The translations under genes were made by a program, and so were the position numbers. From positions 10,788-74,787 of the forward strand of contig JAMDDD010000024.1 in the NCBI GenBank assembly GCA_023489275.1: a DNA stretch of 64,000 bases. The letters are read 5' to 3'. Below the pieces are notes generated by a model, which saw only the letters and a list, made by a program, of their open reading frames with translations, did no database searches and was not told the origin of the DNA. Source of the DNA: Actinomycetota bacterium. Lineage in GTDB: Bacteria > Actinomycetota > Thermoleophilia > BMS3ABIN01. Numbering within the stretch: the first letter of the stretch is position 1; every line of letters starts with the position of its first letter. Positions 22,617 to 29,856 of this stretch are shown here, piece by piece.

Positions 22617-23456
22617 CTAAGCCGTTTCTCCCTTGGCGTTTCCCTCCACAACCTCGGCGTCTGGCTGGCGCTTTTTTTGAACCAGCCGGCTCAAGTGAAT
22701 GCTGATCTCATACAAGAAAATAAACGGAACCGCCATCGCCAGCATCGACACAGCATCTTGCGAGGGCGTTAGGGCGGCGCTGATAACTGCGGCGGCGAGA
22801 ATGGCATAACGCCGGTTTTTCGCCAACTGTTTGGAGTTGACCAATCCGACGCGGGCCAAGGTCAAAAGCAGGGCGGGCAGCTCGAATATAATCCCAAACC
22901 CCAGCAGAAACAGGGTAATAAAAGAAAAATACTTGGACGCCTGCACCTGCGGGTGAAAGTAATCACTCTGGTAATTGAGCAGAAAAGGCAGCGCCCTTGG
23001 CACCACAAACCACCAACAGAAAGCAACGCCCCCGAGGAAAAGCAGTGACGAAAAAAAGGCCGCCATGATCGTCACCCGCTTTTCTTTGGTTTTCAGACCG
23101 GGGGCCACGAACGCCCAGATCTCGTAGATGATGACGGGAGAAGCCAGCAGAAATCCGGCATACAGGGAAACCTTAAAAGCAGTCATGAACGATTCCGTGG
23201 GCGCCAGGGTTATCAGCTGTTTTCCGTGAAGCGGCGCGACGAGGAACTCAAGCAAATACCCCTTGAAAATAAAACAAAGAGTGGCGCTGGCGCCCAGCGC
23301 CACGATCGAAATCACTATTCTTTTGCGGAGTTCCTCCAGATGCTCCACCAGGGGCATCCGAAAGTTGCGATAGTCTGCCAATGCCTGAGCCAGTTGAGTC
23401 GCGGGCGGCGATGATGTTTCCTGTCGCGGCCTGAAATACTTCTGCTTGCCGCTCAT
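22617..23456 (-). CDS. tatC: Twin-arginine translocase subunit TatC
   Basis: MPLVEHLEELRKRI start motif (alternative start at 23357) and six TM helices. Confidence 0.85.
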   Translation of the reverse strand: MSGKQKYFRPRQETSSPPATQLAQALADYRNFRMPLVEHLEELRKRIVISIVALGASATLCFIFKGYLLEFLVAPLHGKQLITLAPTESFMTAFKVSLYAGFLLASPVIIYEIWAFVAPGLKTKEKRVTIMAAFFSSLLFLGGVAFCWWFVVPRALPFLLNYQSDYFHPQVQASKYFSFITLFLLGFGIIFELPALLLTLARVGLVNSKQLAKNRRYAILAAAVISAALTPSQDAVSMLAMAVPFIFLYEISIHLSRLVQKKRQPDAEVVEGNAKGETA

Positions 23457-23560: not shown

Positions 23561-25012
23561 TTGACCGTTGAACGGGGTAGCGAGCTTTTGCCTGCAAATA
23601 TTGCTAAATTATATTTCATGACAAGACCGGACAGACCCTCGGTAGCGCAGCAAATTGAACTTGAGATAGAAAGCCTCGCTTTCGGCGGCCGGGGCTTAGC
23701 CCGCTTAAACGGATTTGTCATCTTTGTAGAGGGTGCATTACCGGGCGACCGGGTCCTTGCGGAGATCATCAGATCTACGCGTTCGTTTGCTGAGGCCAGA
23801 ACCGTCGCTGTGATCAGCCCTTCACAGGCGCGGATTGAGCCAGAGTGCCGGCATTTTGGCGTTTGCGGCGGGTGCTCCTGGCAAACGCTCGAATATCAGA
23901 CACAGCTAAAGTTCAAGCAGCGGCAGGTTGACGACTGCCTGTCACGCATCGGGGGCGTCGATGAATACGAAATCGACACGCCCTTGGGGGCGAGCCAAAT
24001 CTGGCGTTACCGCAACAAGGTCGAGTATTCTTTCACCGGCGATGAAGGCGGACTAAAACTTGGCTTTCACTTGCCGGGTGACTGGAGGCGGGTGATGGAC
24101 GTCGAAGACTGCCTGCTTCACTCCGAAACGACCAACCGGATGCGCGATTTTATTCGTGAGTTTGCGAGCCAGAGCGGGGCCGGTGCTTACGATCAGCGCT
24201 CGGGCAAGGGCTTCTGGCGCCATCTGGTGCTGCGCGAAGCCTTTCGCACCGGCGAATTCATGGTTAACATCGTGACAGCGCCTGGCGAATTTCCGGCCGC
24301 TCGCCGGTTTGTGAACGAAATTACCTCCACTTTCCCCGGGATCGCATCGCTCCTCTGGAGCGTTAATGGGGGTCGCTCGTCTGTGGCCGCCGGTTTTCCC
24401 TATCACGTTCTCGCCGGCCGTGACCATATTTTCGAAGAGATCGGCGGACTGAAGCTCGAGGTCTCACCCTCATCCTTTATGCAGACAAACACCGGCATGG
24501 CCGAGCGCCTTTACGGGAAGTCGCTTGAATATGGCGCTCCCGGAGCTGGTGATCTCGTCTTCGACCTCTATTCCGGGATCGGATCAATCGCCCTGTCGTT
24601 CGCGCGGCACTGCCGGGAGGTGGTTGGAATCGAGATTGTCGAGGAAGCGGTCCGCGCGGCGGCAGCGAATGCGCGACTAAACAATATTGAAAATGCTTCC
24701 TTCCGGTACGGAAAGGTGAGAAGCGTACTGAAGGAGATTCTTGCGGCAGGACGCGTCAGACAGGAATATGGCAGCGGCCCGGTAGAGCTGGTTATTCTCG
24801 ACCCGCCCCGGGCAGGCGCGAGCAAGAAGGAGATTCAGCGGATCCTGGAGCTCGATCCGGACCGGATTGTTTATGTTTCCTGCAATGCCGCGACGATGGC
24901 GGCTAATGCCTCCCGGTTGAAGGAAGGTGGGTACCGGCTGGTCAAGGCGGGCTCAGTTGACATGTTTCCCCACACTCCCCACATTGAAGTCGTCGCCAGT
25001 TTTAAAAAATGA
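23561..25012 (+). CDS. rlmD: 23S rRNA (uracil-5-)-methyltransferase RlmD/RumA family (TRAM plus SAM methyltransferase)
   Basis: TRAM domain, a four-Cys cluster (C..CGGC) and a C-terminal methyltransferase fold. The track start is TTG at 23561; an alternative ATG start is at 23618. Confidence 0.85.
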   Translation: MTVERGSELLPANIAKLYFMTRPDRPSVAQQIELEIESLAFGGRGLARLNGFVIFVEGALPGDRVLAEIIRSTRSFAEARTVAVISPSQARIEPECRHFGVCGGCSWQTLEYQTQLKFKQRQVDDCLSRIGGVDEYEIDTPLGASQIWRYRNKVEYSFTGDEGGLKLGFHLPGDWRRVMDVEDCLLHSETTNRMRDFIREFASQSGAGAYDQRSGKGFWRHLVLREAFRTGEFMVNIVTAPGEFPAARRFVNEITSTFPGIASLLWSVNGGRSSVAAGFPYHVLAGRDHIFEEIGGLKLEVSPSSFMQTNTGMAERLYGKSLEYGAPGAGDLVFDLYSGIGSIALSFARHCREVVGIEIVEEAVRAAAANARLNNIENASFRYGKVRSVLKEILAAGRVRQEYGSGPVELVILDPPRAGASKKEIQRILELDPDRIVYVSCNAATMAANASRLKEGGYRLVKAGSVDMFPHTPHIEVVASFKK

Positions 25013-25200: not shown

Positions 25201-25806
25201 ATGTCCGGCCCCGAAGAAAATCTATATGACAAATATCTGACCCGGGCAATTTCTGAGATCAATGAGTTATGCCGGGAGCTAACCCATTGTGAAAAGTGCG
25301 CCCACGGTCCCGCGGTCCCGGTGATTGGATCAGGACACCCGCTGGCGGACATTTTCCTGGTCAAATACAGAACGCTTCCCAGCGAATCTTCCGAAGGGGT
25401 GGCGTTTTACGGCCCTTCTGGCGAAGCAGTGATGAAGAGTTGCCAGAAATTGGGGATCGACTCCCTTATACTTTACGGCACTGATATCATTAAGTGTGCC
25501 AACGTTTCCGAGGAAGAGGCTTTGGAGCACTGTTCGGCATTCCTCACCCGGGAGCTGATGATCGTACAGCCGAAACTTCTGGTTATCATGGGGGAGAAGG
25601 CCCTCGAGGCCGTTAACAGGCTGGAGTTCCCGCTTTCCCGGCGGCTGGAGTTCAAAGCAGGTGAAATCCAGCAATTTACTCCCACGGCGGAAGCGCTTGT
25701 GACTCCGGAAATCGACACCTCTCTAAATGACCAAAAAAGAAAAACAAGCTTCTGGAAATCATTCAGAATCCTTGGCGAATGGTACGAATCGCTTCCGCCC
25801 TACTAA
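25201..25806 (+). CDS. Uracil-DNA glycosylase, family 4
   Basis: CEKCAHGPAVPVIGSGHPLADIFLV...GPSG and HPS-like motifs are present. Confidence 0.8.
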   Translation: MSGPEENLYDKYLTRAISEINELCRELTHCEKCAHGPAVPVIGSGHPLADIFLVKYRTLPSESSEGVAFYGPSGEAVMKSCQKLGIDSLILYGTDIIKCANVSEEEALEHCSAFLTRELMIVQPKLLVIMGEKALEAVNRLEFPLSRRLEFKAGEIQQFTPTAEALVTPEIDTSLNDQKRKTSFWKSFRILGEWYESLPPY

Positions 25807-26632
25807 GCCGGAAGAAAGGCGTGTAGCACGCCTACAACGTAATGCCAACCAGAATGGAAGCTTCATCCGGAAGCCATTTCTCGCTTTCAAGCGGGAAATT
25901 TATTCGTTGCTCGTCTTTACCGGCATTTTCGGGTGCGCGGCGCTGCTTTTTTTCATGCTGACCCGGTCAGGTTTGGTTTCCCGCAACTCCGATTCAGGGT
26001 TGATGTTGGCGTTCATGCTTGGTCTCATCCTGGCCGGGGGGATTTCCTCCACGCTGGCTTTTCTATCCCGCCTTGGCCACCGGCTGCTCCTGGTTGCTCT
26101 CGGCTCCGCACTTGCCGCAGCGGCCGGAATCGCCACCGGCCTGGCGCCGCTGGAGCTTGCCGCAAAACTCTTGTTTGCCACCAGCGCCGGGCTCTGGGTC
26201 GGCATGATGCTTACATCTATCGGCCAGATCATTATCATCAGTGGCCTAATCATCCTGGTCGATTTTTACAGTGTCTTTCTTGGACCGACAAAAAAACTGC
26301 TTGAAAGCGGAGGCAAGGCGATCGATTACTTTACGATCAACCTGCCCGTCTTCGGCGCTCCAGCGGTTTCGAAAATTGGCGTCAGCGATCTGCTTTTCTA
26401 TGCGGTATTTCTCGGTTGCACACTTACATACAGGCTGAGGCGAATTACAACCGCCGTGGCAATGACGGCCTCGTTTGTCGGCACGATGATTATCGGCCTG
26501 ACGCTTAAAAGGGGCGTCCCCGCGCTGCCGCTGCTTTCCGTTTCTTTTCTGCTTTCCAACGCCGATCTGCTTTACCGGCGGTTTCTGGAAGAGCCTGATG
26601 AACAAAGAAAAAGGGGGGAAGAAAGGAATTAG
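25727..26632 (+). CDS. Presenilin/SPP-like (A22 family) intramembrane aspartyl-protease homolog; start uncertain
   Basis: Polytopic protein with LVDFYSVF (YD-like), KIGVSDLLFYAVFLG (GxGD-like) and GVPALPLL (PAL) motifs in the presenilin order. Its last 344 bp fall inside the tandem-duplication unit. Confidence 0.45.
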   Translation: MTKKEKQASGNHSESLANGTNRFRPTKPEERRVARLQRNANQNGSFIRKPFLAFKREIYSLLVFTGIFGCAALLFFMLTRSGLVSRNSDSGLMLAFMLGLILAGGISSTLAFLSRLGHRLLLVALGSALAAAAGIATGLAPLELAAKLLFATSAGLWVGMMLTSIGQIIIISGLIILVDFYSVFLGPTKKLLESGGKAIDYFTINLPVFGAPAVSKIGVSDLLFYAVFLGCTLTYRLRRITTAVAMTASFVGTMIIGLTLKRGVPALPLLSVSFLLSNADLLYRRFLEEPDEQRKRGEERN

Positions 26633-26659
26633 GGCCGGCCGCGCCAGGCCCAGTCAGCA

Positions 26660-27094
26660 ATGCGAATTTTTTTGTTGATTTATACGCTGTTCATGGTCGC
26701 CGGCAGCTTGTTTATGCTGGGCTTGGTGCCGCGTGCGCTTAAAGACCTGGGCCAGGAGCGCCAGCGCCTAAAACAGCAGGCCCCTCAGGCCGATTTCCAA
26801 TCAATGGTTGAAGCCGGCTACCGCGTCAACGTGACGCTGCTTTTGATCGAGATTCTTTATTATTATCTATTGCTTGGCTTCGGCGGTCCGGGATGGCAGT
26901 TTTTTTATGGCGGGTTTTCCTTCGGCTTGCTCCATATCGGCTATCTGATCACCGGCCGTCTGGAAAAACGAAGGCTGTCGCGGGGGTCAGCCAGGACGGC
27001 GTGGCCGCGTTTCTTGCTTTGGTTGACAGCAATTTTGACAGGTGTTGAAATAGTTTTTCTGGTGTATATCGCCTATCTCTTGCTGCAATCATAA
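26660..27094 (+). CDS. Small membrane protein with four predicted TM helices, hypothetical (copy 1)
   Basis: 144-aa ORF with hydrophobic segments; its own upstream spacer is duplicated with it. Confidence 0.5.
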   Translation: MRIFLLIYTLFMVAGSLFMLGLVPRALKDLGQERQRLKQQAPQADFQSMVEAGYRVNVTLLLIEILYYYLLLGFGGPGWQFFYGGFSFGLLHIGYLITGRLEKRRLSRGSARTAWPRFLLWLTAILTGVEIVFLVYIAYLLLQS

Positions 27095-27470
27095 GCGGAC
27101 AACAGACTCTGGGTGCTGGACTTTGAGTTACCCGGTTCTTGCTTTTCTCCAAAATCTGGTATTCAAAACTGAAAAAATGGACCGCCCTCACTACGATGGC
27201 ATCTATGTGCCAAAGTGGTAAATTCTTACCACTTAATCACGAAGAGAAAAGAGTCCGGGCGCAGATTACAACAGCAGCCCTTGACTTGGCAAAGAACGTT
27301 TTTCACTTTCACGCTGTTAATGGGAAAGGAAGAACCGTCTTAAAGAAACAGCTGGCCAGGAAGGCGTCCTACCGTTCTTTGCCAATCAAGCGCCCCGCCT
27401 GATTGGATTAGAAGCGCAAGGTGCAAGCACCTACCGGGCCAGAGAGCTGGGAAAGCTCGGTCACGAGGTG
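27095..27470 (+). mobile_element. IS110-family element remnant, copy 1: low-GC non-coding left end plus the transposase N-terminal fragment, cut by the duplication junction
   Basis: GC drops to ~45%. A perfect hairpin AAGTGGTAA-ATTC-TTACCACTT lies at 27214–27235. The translation LDLAKNVFHFHAVNGKGRTVLKKQLARK matches the IS110 transposase N-terminus. Confidence 0.6.
27250..27470 (+). pseudogene. IS110-family (DEDD) transposase N-terminal fragment, frameshifted and lacking a start codon (copy 1)
   Basis: AQITTAALDLAKNVFHFHAVNGKGRTVLKKQLARK is followed, in the +1 frame, by FFANQAPRLIGLEAQGASTYRARELGKLGHEV. Confidence 0.6.
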
Positions 27471-27841
27471 CAAAAAAACTGCTTGAAAGCGGAGGCAAGG
27501 CGATCGATTACTTTACGATCAACCTGCCCGTCTTCGGCGCTCCAGCGGTTTCGAAAATTGGCGTCAGCGATCTGCTTTTCTATGCGGTATTTCTCGGTTG
27601 CACACTTACATACAGGCTGAGGCGAATTACAACCGCCGTGGCAATGACGGCCTCGTTTGTCGGCACGATGATTATCGGCCTGACGCTTAAAAGGGGCGTC
27701 CCCGCGCTGCCGCTGCTTTCCGTTTCTTTTCTGCTTTCCAACGCCGATCTGCTTTACCGGCGGTTTCTGGAAGAGCCTGATGAACAAAGAAAAAGGGGGG
27801 AAGAAAGGAATTAGGGCCGGCCGCGCCAGGCCCAGTCAGCA

Positions 27842-28276
27842 ATGCGAATTTTTTTGTTGATTTATACGCTGTTCATGGTCGCCGGCAGCTTGTTTATGCT
27901 GGGCTTGGTGCCGCGTGCGCTTAAAGACCTGGGCCAGGAGCGCCAGCGCCTAAAACAGCAGGCCCCTCAGGCCGATTTCCAATCAATGGTTGAAGCCGGC
28001 TACCGCGTCAACGTGACGCTGCTTTTGATCGAGATTCTTTATTATTATCTATTGCTTGGCTTCGGCGGTCCGGGATGGCAGTTTTTTTATGGCGGGTTTT
28101 CCTTCGGCTTGCTCCATATCGGCTATCTGATCACCGGCCGTCTGGAAAAACGAAGGCTGTCGCGGGGGTCAGCCAGGACGGCGTGGCCGCGTTTCTTGCT
28201 TTGGTTGACAGCAATTTTGACAGGTGTTGAAATAGTTTTTCTGGTGTATATCGCCTATCTCTTGCTGCAATCATAA
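27842..28276 (+). CDS. Small membrane protein with four predicted TM helices, hypothetical (copy 2, identical)
   Basis: 100% identical duplicate of 26660–27094. Confidence 0.5.
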   Translation: MRIFLLIYTLFMVAGSLFMLGLVPRALKDLGQERQRLKQQAPQADFQSMVEAGYRVNVTLLLIEILYYYLLLGFGGPGWQFFYGGFSFGLLHIGYLITGRLEKRRLSRGSARTAWPRFLLWLTAILTGVEIVFLVYIAYLLLQS

Positions 28277-28764
28277 GCGGACAACAGACTCTGGGTGCTG
28301 GACTTTGAGTTACCCGGTTCTTGCTTTTCTCCAAAATCTGGTATTCAAAACTGAAAAAATGGACCGCCCTCACTACGATGGCATCTATGTGCCAAAGTGG
28401 TAAATTCTTACCACTTAATCACGAAGAGAAAAGAGTCCGGGCGCAGATTACAACAGCAGCCCTTGACTTGGCAAAGAACGTTTTTCACTTTCACGCTGTT
28501 AATGGGAAAGGAAGAACCGTCTTAAAGAAACAGCTGGCCAGGAAGGCGTCCTACCGTTCTTTGCCAATCAAGCGCCCCGCCTGATTGGATTAGAAGCGCA
28601 AGGTGCAAGCACCTACCGGGCCAGAGAGCTGGGAAAGCTCGGTCACGAGGTGCGGCTCATGAGCCCACAGTTTGTAAAACCGTTCATAAAGAGTTCGAAA
28701 AACAACCAAAACGACGCCGAGGCGATAGGAATCAAATTGGCAGGCAGGGAGAAGACCTGGTTCG
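28277..28764 (+). mobile_element. IS110-family element remnant, copy 2 (left end plus ~110 codons of transposase, 3' truncated against the GGDEF gene)
   Basis: Same as copy 1, then continues ...GHEVRLMSPQFVKPFIKSSKNNQNDAEAI, which matches IS110 transposases. The catalytic DEDD core and C-terminal domain are absent. Confidence 0.6.
28432..28764 (+). pseudogene. IS110-family transposase N-terminal fragment (copy 2), frameshifted and truncated
   Basis: Translated homology as above; no start codon; one frameshift near 28540. Confidence 0.6.
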
Positions 28765-29856
28765 TCAGGAGACAGCCAGCCGCTGTTTCCGGTGGGCCAC
28801 GCTGACACGGTTGCGGCCGCTTTTTTTAGCAACATATAGCAGCTGGTCAACCTTATCCAATAGTTCTTCACGAGACGAAGCCCCCAAGGGATAGCTGGCG
28901 ACGCCGGCGCTAACAGTGATGGCTGTGCTGGCGCCACCCACCGGCACCCGGGCCTGGGAGATAGCCCGCCTCAAACGGCCGGCCGTTTCGATGCCGGCTG
29001 ATTCGTCCCCAGGAATCAGGAGCACGAACTCCTCGCCACCAAAACGGGCGGCAATATCGGATTCGCGCTTTTCCCGCCTCAATGTAACCGCGACGGTTTT
29101 AAGCGCCTCGTTCCCCGCCCGGTGTCCAAACCGGTCGTTAAATTGCTTGAAATGATCGACATCGAACATAACCAGCGTGACTGAGCCGCCGTAGCGCTCT
29201 GCCCGGTGCATTTCGCGATCGAGGCAATCCATGAAAAAACCGTAATTGTAGAGGCCGGTAAGTGAATCGGTGATGGAGGACCGGAGCGTGTGCCGGTGCG
29301 CCAGTTTCTGCCGGCGTTGACCCCAGCCGAGCCCCAGGGCAATGGATGCAAACGTGACCAGGGCAATTATTATCGCCGGGCTCTTTTCGAAAGGAGTCTG
29401 AACCAGAAGCAAGCCGGTAAGCAGCAACGACAGCAGCGCGCCAGCCTCATAAAAATACCATGCCGAGAGGAGAATCGGCGCCGCCAGCAGCGGCCAGAAA
29501 TTATCTTGCCCCATAGCTTTAAGCGCCACCCACAGGAAAAAGAAGGCGCCACCGATAACGAGAACAATTTTCAGCCTGCGGTTTACCGCATCACTGCCGT
29601 GAAGAAAAGGAACTTTTACCGAAGGTTTTGGGGACTCCCGCCTGGGCCGGGCGGTGGCGGCCGGCCGGGCGCGTCTGCCAGACTGGCGGTGGCGACGCTG
29701 CCCGCGCCCTGCGCTCGCGGCTCTTTGTTGGGAAACTGAACCGACCCGGCTTCCCCCAAAAGCGCCAGCTTCGAAGAGTTCCTTATGGTCTGCTGCCGAA
29801 TGCCCGGGTTGACTGCCTTTCGAGCCGCCCGAGCCTGACATTCGCTCAATTTTCAT
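28765..29856 (-). CDS. Membrane-anchored GGDEF-domain diguanylate cyclase
   Basis: RFGGEEFVLL active-site motif. N-terminal TM helices are preceded by an Arg-rich low-complexity segment. Confidence 0.85.
   Translation of the reverse strand: MKIERMSGSGGSKGSQPGHSAADHKELFEAGAFGGSRVGSVSQQRAASAGRGQRRHRQSGRRARPAATARPRRESPKPSVKVPFLHGSDAVNRRLKIVLVIGGAFFFLWVALKAMGQDNFWPLLAAPILLSAWYFYEAGALLSLLLTGLLLVQTPFEKSPAIIIALVTFASIALGLGWGQRRQKLAHRHTLRSSITDSLTGLYNYGFFMDCLDREMHRAERYGGSVTLVMFDVDHFKQFNDRFGHRAGNEALKTVAVTLRREKRESDIAARFGGEEFVLLIPGDESAGIETAGRLRRAISQARVPVGGASTAITVSAGVASYPLGASSREELLDKVDQLLYVAKKSGRNRVSVAHRKQRLAVS

Follow-up and report, generated by a model that had tools for sequence, protein, structure and literature searches.

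The window, i.e. the whole stretch of 64,000 nucleotides analysed here, comes from a soil Actinomycetota of the class Thermoleophilia. It contains a presenilin/SPP-like gene at 25727..26632 (+), which encodes 301 aa from ATG 25727 and was delimited by the ORF, the starts of homologs, profile matches and the fold. The first-pass annotation described this ORF as polytopic with three presenilin-like motifs, and all three strings are found in the protein: LIILVDFYSVFLG at residues 174-186 (with D179), KIGVSDLLFYAVFLG at residues 216-230 (with D221) and GVPALPLL at residues 263-270.

An alternative start, TTG 25772, gives 286 aa and is the start called in a 98% identical homolog (P0001). Both candidate starts lie inside the 3' end of an upstream UDG-like gene with its stop at 25806. 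The first transmembrane (TM) helix begins about 55 codons after ATG 25727, and therefore no TM helix precedes this ATG, contrary to the earlier suggestion that one starts before it.

Gene neighbourhood

The upstream gene, 25201..25806 (+), encodes a 201 aa family-4-like protein of the UDG superfamily (Pfam UDG, E=1e-9; PDB 4zbx, E=7e-10). Among the 87 loci, a UDG-like gene is located directly upstream of the presenilin-like gene in 86, and in 78 of these 86 the two ORFs overlap or abut; these overlaps are an upper bound, since the most upstream start codon was used, and the very large ones are spurious, caused by the long open frames of GC-rich sequence. The UDG-like protein has an altered motif A. 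The presenilin-like gene is almost always found in putative co-transcription, with overlapping ORFs, with the gene of a UDG-fold Fe-S-type protein. This conserved neighbour had been missed in the first-pass annotation.

On the other side, 27 nt downstream of the presenilin-like gene, lies the first copy of p144, 26660..27094 (+), which encodes a four-helix membrane protein of 144 aa. It had been put forward as a possible partner or substrate, with synteny in related genomes as the check. The gene is clade-restricted, present at only 10 of the 87 loci, and its structural matches are generic four-helix bundles only. On these grounds p144 was ruled out as a γ-secretase-like partner.

Tandem duplication and IS110 remnant

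In the assembled sequence, positions 26289..27471 and 27471..28653 are two copies of a tandem duplication, 1,183 nt at 100% identity with a period of 1,182. Each copy takes in 38% of the presenilin-like gene at its 3' end, the p144 gene and the first part of an IS110 remnant. The repeat starts at codon 188, and therefore residues 188-301, with the G-x-S-D and PAL motifs, are duplicated together with the 144 aa gene, just as had been noted for the 3' third of the gene. In copy 2 the presenilin-like part is a promoterless 3' fragment, 27471-27814 (codons 188-301). The longest ORF in this fragment has 58 aa and includes neither Asp, and the fragment is followed by a second intact p144 at 27842-28276. 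The first copy of the presenilin-like gene is intact in the window, and the duplication is absent in a 97% identical relative (L001).

The remnant, 28438..28787 (+), is a frameshifted N-terminal part of an IS110-family transposase that was found by three-frame translation. The separate fragments were not recognised by Pfam; only the frameshift-spliced peptide was matched, in NCBIfam (NF033542, E=1.1e-19, profile positions 2-101 out of 343). The first part of the remnant is also present in copy 1, at 27256-27471, and the distal junction of the duplication is inside the remnant.

Homology to presenilin

When the 301 aa protein is searched alone, the match to Pfam Presenilin (PF01080) is sub-threshold, 9.6 bits and E=0.48 with a cut-off of 34.3 bits, and the NCBIfam search gave no match. 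Family profiles were therefore needed to establish the homology. Against all PDB sequences, the family profile A1 matches only presenilin-1 (PS1, E=2e-4) and presenilin-2 (PS2, E=5.8e-4) at E<=10. The broader profile A2 matches PS2 with E=5.2e-7 and PS1 with E-values from 6e-6 to 6e-5, and the next, unrelated, PDB match has E=0.36. A profile match to A22 proteases, the lack of which would have spoken against the annotation, is thus found. At the sequence level no SPP/SPPL chain in PDB was matched by the family profile, and no archaeal PSH chain by A1 or A2.

The A1 and A2 alignments place D221 on D385 of PS1 and PALP on PALP, while D179 falls on the TM6 Asp of presenilin in weak, lower-scoring stretches. 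When residues 291-376 of PS1 were removed, hhalign produced a single collinear alignment that spans the three motifs, with a probability of 82% and E=1e-5.

Among the family members searched against Pfam, Presenilin is the sole recurrent match, found for 14 out of 39 at E<=1 and for 9 out of 62 at E<=0.1, with a best E-value of 2.3e-4. One member carries a precomputed PF01080 match, and none matches PF04258 or PF06550.

Conservation of the motifs

Conservation was counted in 244 family members, with denominators that vary by position. The first motif, V178-D179-x-x-S182-V183-x-x-G186-P187-T188 at 26258..26290 (+), was defined from conservation and the alignment to PS2 and PS1. It contains the first catalytic-type Asp (D179, codon 26261-26263) and aligns to Y256-D257...G-P of PS1. 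D179 is kept in 231 out of 235 sequences. The preceding position, 178, is V in 188, A in 17, I in 15, S in 8, F in 3 and L in 1 out of 234, i.e. the Tyr of the canonical Y-D is not among the residues listed.

The second motif, I217-G218-x-S220-D221-x-x-F224-Y225 at 26375..26401 (+), is the GxGD equivalent and is aligned to L-G-L-G-D385-F-I-F-Y of PS1; the codon of D221 is 26387-26389. In the family it takes the form G-x-[S/P/T]-D-x-x-F-F. Both D221 (241/241) and G218 (243/243) are invariant, and F224 is kept in 239 of 241. At position 220 we find S in 122, P in 83, T in 27, A in 8 and V in 3 sequences, and the Gly of the canonical G-x-G-D in none out of 243. The replacement of the second Gly by Ser, noticed at first in this one protein, is therefore one instance of a family-wide trait.

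The PAL(P) motif, P265-A266-L267-P268 at 26519..26530 (+), was also defined from conservation and alignment and is located where the last TM helix begins. PS1 has the identical P433-A-L-P436, and in the family the four positions are 91-99% conserved (P265 221/231, A266 211/233, L267 217/233, P268 230/233). The near-invariance of the PAL and Asp motifs across the 244 members is more than chance would give.

Predicted fold and topology

The AlphaFold2 (AF2) model has a pLDDT of 83.8 and a pTM of 0.79. In a Foldseek search against PDB the top 19 matches are all SPPL2a, PS1 or PS2, at global TM-scores of only about 0.4. The predicted model has the three-dimensional fold of presenilin/SPP.

According to the model there are eight membrane-length helices, and not the nine expected in the first-pass annotation. 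Five N-terminal TM helices, 25886..26281 (+), were assigned from AF2 secondary structure, hydropathy and loop charge (residues 54-81, 89-116, 119-137, 140-161 and 165-185). The fifth bears D179, so there are five helices through the D179 helix compared with six in presenilin. A permissive hhalign search gave no confident pick of which N-terminal TM helix of presenilin is absent. The two Asp are inside adjacent TM helices of the model, D179 in 165-185 and D221 at the start of 219-234, as an A22-type protease would have them. Between them, in an inter-Asp loop of about 30 aa, DSSP on the model assigns a predicted β-hairpin (residues 203-207 and 214-218, 26333..26380 (+)) directly before G218.

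The family-wide net charge is positive for loop b-c (+0.77), loop f-g (+2.29) and the C-terminus (+0.92), and negative for the inter-Asp loop e-f (-1.06). These values are compatible with an SPP-like orientation, with the inter-Asp loop predicted to be exoplasmic and the C-terminus cytoplasmic; the prediction is made from the positive-inside rule alone, which loop d-e fits poorly with a net charge of -0.16 where a positive charge is expected.

Given the residue conservation and the PDB profile matches to presenilins only, the gene product is a true homolog with the presenilin/SPP fold. The core of the first-pass annotation, an A22-type homolog with non-canonical active-site motifs, is in agreement with profiles, fold and conservation alike. 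The sub-threshold single-sequence Pfam match (E=0.48) and the position of the 3' third of the gene inside an exact tandem repeat could also be explained by a chance resemblance of the motifs in an unrelated hydrophobic protein, or by an ORF artefact of a duplicated or mis-assembled region. However, this explanation is ruled out by the A2 matches in PDB, the fold, the conserved loci and the residue conservation, and we give it practically no weight.

A second alternative is a GxGD protease of the type IV prepilin/preflagellin peptidase type (A24) and not of the A22 type. The known GxGD proteases of bacteria are the A24 enzymes, in which two Asp are likewise present, but no sequence or fold similarity to PilD/FlaK was found, and we consider this assignment very improbable. 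FlaK has been described as a GxGD protease (PMC4985597).

Family size and distribution

The family comprises 1,226 clusters at 50% identity. At least 137 species genomes carry it, with the proteins annotated as "hypothetical" in public databases. In the genome scan it occurs only in Thermoleophilia/Gaiellales-type MAGs; this taxonomic range is a lower bound, since the scan with the trimmed alignment A4 recovers only members with the exact pattern PALPLLS[VL][AS]F. A homolog search with profile A2, over a capped set of candidates, brought in no distant or annotated relatives. The thresholds of Pfam and NCBIfam overlook a large, lineage-wide bacterial family. In the literature searched, no account of a presenilin clade in bacteria was found, though an earlier description is possible.

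Proposed function

We propose that the gene encodes a divergent bacterial di-aspartyl (GxGD-type) intramembrane protease of the presenilin/SPP superfamily, a prediction to which we assign a probability of roughly 70%. D179 and D221 would together make up an active site within the membrane, at which TM segments of substrate proteins are hydrolysed, and the short β-hairpin before D221 may act like the β2 strand of presenilin and pair with the substrate. With no large loop for endoproteolysis and no γ-secretase-type subunits, the enzyme would work alone, like SPP and archaeal PSH. If the eight TM helices are arranged N-in/C-in, the inter-Asp loop would face outward as in SPP, and the substrates would therefore be N-in/C-out (type II) helices, possibly leftover signal peptides, signal anchors or anti-sigma-like proteins.

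The protein could instead have kept the presenilin fold without being a protease, as a pseudo-protease, in ion or lipid handling, or as a scaffold for the co-encoded UDG-like protein. The family departs systematically from the canonical Y-D and G-x-G-D, and in PS1 most substitutions of G384 cripple activity. The model has one TM helix fewer than the canonical fold, no substrate candidate was found, and none of the A22 proteases described in the literature examined is obligately paired, as here (86/87 loci), with a soluble protein of the UDG fold. On the other hand, 98-100% of about 240 diverged sequences retain the two Asp, along with G218, F224 and PALP, as one would expect of a catalytic site. 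In most pseudo-enzymes the catalytic residues are lost, and in archaeal A24 peptidases of the GxGD clan the equivalent position can hold a residue other than Gly. We therefore regard a non-protease role as unlikely, although it is the alternative to be taken most seriously, and favour an active intramembrane protease of the di-aspartyl type as the most likely reading.

Two further ideas can be combined into a more speculative proposal, which we hold to be rather improbable as a whole. The presenilin-like protein and the overlapping Cys-rich UDG-fold protein would form an obligate two-gene module, in which the function of a di-aspartyl protease embedded in the membrane is coupled to that of a partner that senses nucleic acids or redox state; the protease might for example tether the partner, release it or be gated by it. 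Among prokaryotes, the Thermoleophilia clade would at the same time be closest in sequence to eukaryotic presenilin. In the profile search, PALP and a G-P...VE segment are common to the Thermoleophilia family and eukaryotic presenilin, and no archaeal PSH chain is reached. Such a relationship, if true, would bear on the origin of presenilin.

If the predicted protease is active, the family would provide a small, single-chain bacterial model of presenilin-type catalysis, a natural experiment on which of the "signature" residues are needed, and one more piece of evidence on how the presenilin/SPP family arose.

Comparison with known systems

Presenilin/SPP-type proteases have been described as eukaryotic and archaeal (PMC2947513, PMC4343526, PMC9263693). 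Compared with presenilin-1 and -2 (MEROPS A22A, PF01080), the catalytic subunit of γ-secretase, the bacterial proteins are shorter, about 240-300 aa against about 450-470 aa, and have eight predicted TM helices instead of nine. They have V-D and not Y-D at the first Asp, and G-x-[S/P/T]-D and not G-L-G-D at the second. The large cytosolic loop of the presenilin subfamily is lacking: the two Asp helices are joined by a loop of about 30 aa, whereas that of PS1 exceeds 100 aa and is autoproteolysed. The predicted orientation is opposite to that of presenilin, with the loop outward and the C-terminus inward. No equivalents of nicastrin, APH-1 or PEN-2 were found in the gene neighbourhoods examined.

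SPP and SPPL2a (MEROPS A22B, PF04258) also have nine TM helices against the eight predicted here, and the luminal PA domain of this class is absent from the bacterial family. The SPP motif is PALL, where the bacterial family has PALP.

The archaeal PSH/MCMJR1 (PDB 4hyc/4hyg) keeps the canonical YD and GXGD and has PPL with no obvious PAL motif (PMC2947513), and its chain has 9 TMS (PMC4343526). MCMJR1 has been purified in DDM (PMC2947513). The bacterial family is the reverse of PSH in this respect, as it keeps PALP and alters both YD and GxGD.

The gene and its motifs

The open reading frame at 25727-26632 (+) encodes 301 amino acids and contains, in this order, LIILVDFYSVFLG (D179), KIGVSDLLFYAVFLG (D221) and GVPALPLL (P265-A-L-P268), numbered from the ATG at 25727. 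The three presenilin-like motifs reported in the first-pass annotation are thus all present. A transmembrane helix was also thought to start ahead of the first ATG. This is wrong, as about 55 codons separate the ATG at 25727 from the first hydrophobic helix downstream. A TTG at 25772 is the called start in a 98%-identical homolog, and with either start the gene begins within the 3' end of its upstream neighbour (stop at 25806). In the close clade the protein has a basic, probably cytoplasmic N-terminal extension (window 25772-25885, residues 16-53, G-T-N-R-x-R...E-S-R-V-S-R-L) with a short helix predicted at residues 28-39. It is absent from distant family members and is partly encoded within the overlap with the 3' end of the UDG-like gene.

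Homology to presenilin

On its own, the 301-residue protein matches Pfam Presenilin below the threshold (E=0.48, 9.6 bits, cut-off 34.3) but in the correct region, with residues 216-269 covering profile positions 333-388 of 408. An NCBIfam search with the protein gave no match. A homolog search returned 97 proteins without a Pfam domain; all named ones are "hypothetical", and those named by NCBI are from Thermoleophilia MAGs.

The invariant columns of a 39-sequence family alignment, A1 (D179, S182, V183, G186, P187, T188, G218, D221, F224, A266, L267, P268), coincide exactly with the proposed motif residues. At E<=10 the A1 profile retrieves just presenilin-1 (2e-4) and presenilin-2 (5.8e-4) from all PDB sequences. 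Using a more diverse profile of 62 sequences, A2, we obtained the expected match to A22-family proteases, with PS2 at E=5.2e-7, PS1 at 6e-6 to 6e-5 and the best unrelated PDB match at 0.36. In the alignments from both profiles D221 corresponds to PS1 D385 and PALP to PALP, and D179 and G-P-T correspond to Y-D257...G-P-L of PS1 in a weaker collinear stretch. Comparing A2 with human PS1 (sequence confirmed against 5a63_B across residues 1-467) using hhalign gave E=6e-5; when the hydrophilic loop 291-376 was removed from PS1, a single continuous alignment (probability 82%, E=1e-5) included the three motifs. Among individual members no Pfam family other than Presenilin recurs (14/39 at E<=1 and 9/62 at E<=0.1, the best being 2.3e-4), and one member has a precomputed PF01080 match.

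Predicted structure and topology

The AlphaFold2 model, built on the A1 alignment, is confident (pLDDT 83.8, pTM 0.79). Its best fold match is SPPL2a (score 14.4; 2.8 Å / 180), followed by the archaeal PSH 4hyc (11.2; 3.6 Å / 162) and PS2 (10.4; 2.6 Å / 144), and the next unrelated structure scores 6.9. All of the top 19 Foldseek matches are SPPL2a, PS1 or PS2, with modest global TM-scores of ~0.4. The profile matches and the fold matches together establish the presenilin/SPP homology and fold of the protein. We rejected both a chance resemblance and an A24 prepilin-peptidase identity.

According to the model, four N-terminal transmembrane helices (54-81, 89-116, 119-137, 140-161) precede the helix carrying D179 (165-185). 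A β-hairpin (203-207 and 214-218) lies directly ahead of G218, D221 is at the beginning of helix 219-234, and helix 239-260 is followed by helix 266-288, with PALP at its opening. Both aspartates are therefore in predicted transmembrane helices, as the first-pass annotation expected. In place of the nine helices it also expected, the model has eight, five through the first-Asp helix versus six in presenilin.

Family-wide, the net charge is +0.77 in loop b-c, +2.29 in loop f-g (L-R-R following the D221 helix), +0.92 at the C-terminus, -1.06 in the inter-Asp loop e-f and -0.16 in loop d-e. By the positive-inside rule, these charges suggest that both termini are inside (N-in/C-in) and the inter-Asp loop is outside, an SPP-like orientation, although the d-e loop, which should then be inside, is not positive. 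The orientation of SPP is the opposite of that of presenilin.

Family signature and proposed mechanism

Among 244 fetched family members the motifs are highly conserved: D179 (231/235), S182 (234/236), V183 (232/236), G186 (236/239), P187 (234/239), T188 (230/239), G218 (243/243), D221 (241/241), F224 (239/241), P265 (221/231), A266 (211/233), L267 (217/233) and P268 (230/233). The residue preceding D179 is Val in 188 of 234, with no Tyr among the residues listed. The earlier observation of Ser for the second Gly of GxGD holds, as D221 is preceded by S (122), P (83), T (27), A (8) or V (3), never by Gly. From these counts, the non-canonical motifs are a fixed family property and no peculiarity of the window gene.

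Two conserved aspartates are found on adjacent helices together with the PALP motif, and the model has the presenilin/SPP fold, with a β-hairpin in its short inter-Asp loop. We estimate a probability of about 0.7 that the protein is an active protease. The main ground for keeping a non-proteolytic presenilin-fold protein as an unlikely alternative is that the canonical Tyr and Gly are lost. The near-perfect retention of both aspartates across the family argues for a role in catalysis. In an active protease the substrate transmembrane helix would enter laterally, and the β-strand preceding D221 would pair with it like the β2 strand in the γ-secretase hybrid sheet (PMC10290658). The Asp pair would activate water for hydrolysis of this helix. 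The enzyme would be single-chain, as PSH and SPP, and given the predicted orientation type II (N-in) substrates would be expected.

Distribution and gene neighbourhood

An exhaustive HMM search found 1,226 clusters (50% identity) at E<=1e-3, 682 of these at <=1e-10. Scanning GTDB species genomes with a sequence pattern confirmed 137 loci. Every one of the 80 retained comes from a MAG, with the label Thermoleophilia, Gaiellales, Gaiellaceae or generic Actinomycetota. One family member is on a contig labelled "Deltaproteobacteria" (L041, JBLMXT010000067.1, about 3.7-3.8 kb); its UDG-like and methyltransferase neighbours are those of the Thermoleophilia loci, so the contig is probably mis-binned rather than evidence of a second phylum.

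In 86 of 87 loci the next gene upstream, on the same strand, belongs to the UDG superfamily; the sole exception, L028, is truncated at a contig end. Four of five independent gene calls give the two reading frames an overlap of 25-35 nt. Taking the most upstream start codon, the frames overlap or abut (<30 nt) in 78/86 loci. An rRNA/tRNA U5-methyltransferase gene is nearby in 79/87 loci and switches side and strand among clades; the UDG/presenilin-like pair remains intact. In the window the neighbours are TatC (22617-23456, -), a TRAM-domain RNA U5-methyltransferase (23561-25012, +) and a membrane GGDEF diguanylate cyclase (28765-29856, -).

The UDG-like gene (25201-25806, +) is family-4-like (Pfam UDG E=1e-9, PDB 4zbx E=7e-10), and its conservation exceeds that of the presenilin-like gene (45-78% versus 32-57% identity). 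In the alignment four Cys are kept at the family-4 Fe-S positions. KYRTLP replaces the family-4 motif A GEAPG, so the protein is perhaps not a normal uracil-DNA glycosylase. The near-universal pairing is the most intriguing loose end.

Tandem duplication

An exact tandem repeat of 1,183 nt (26289-27471 = 27471-28653, 100% identity, period 1,182) begins at codon 188. G-x-S-D, PAL and the downstream gene for a 144-residue protein, p144, are therefore duplicated, in agreement with the first-pass annotation. The first presenilin-like copy is intact, whereas the second spans just codons 188-301 and is promoterless; the longest ORF in this fragment, 58 aa, lacks both aspartates. Both p144 copies are intact (26660-27094 and 27842-28276, +). 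A 97%-identical relative, L001 (GCA_021789835.1), is collinear with the window and has a single copy. An IS110-family RNA-guided transposase has left a frameshifted N-terminal remnant of ~100 aa (27256-27471 and 28438-28787, +), and the distal junction (27471) falls within it; the spliced peptide matches NF033542 at E=1.1e-19. The overlap at the junction is one base. The remnant occurs in L001 too. Either the repeat is real and very recent or it is an artefact of assembly, and the identity of the gene is unaffected in both cases.

The suggested synteny with p144 is seen in the close clade (10/87 loci) and not in the remaining loci. This clade-restricted protein is a four-helix membrane bundle without a Pfam family. 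Its A-G-Y-R-x-N stretch is invariant, as are polar or charged residues in or near the helices (R55, N57, E64, H92, E102, E130).

Comparison with known presenilins and SPPs

Within the presenilin/SPP superfamily, the family forms a bacterial clade that spans the Thermoleophilia. No annotation of it exists in the database sources examined, and it is not described in the literature searched, which covers the phylogeny literature incompletely. It is canonical in its profile similarity, its fold, its PAL motif and the placement of the Asp pair on adjacent helices, and it departs in four features, namely Y-D, G-x-G-D, the nine helices (eight predicted) and the Pfam threshold. By sequence the nearest known relatives are the presenilins, which share PALP and G-P...VE with the family, whereas archaeal PSH has no obvious PAL (PMC2947513). 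The best structural match is SPPL2a, and the closest analogue by lifestyle is PSH, prokaryotic and stand-alone.
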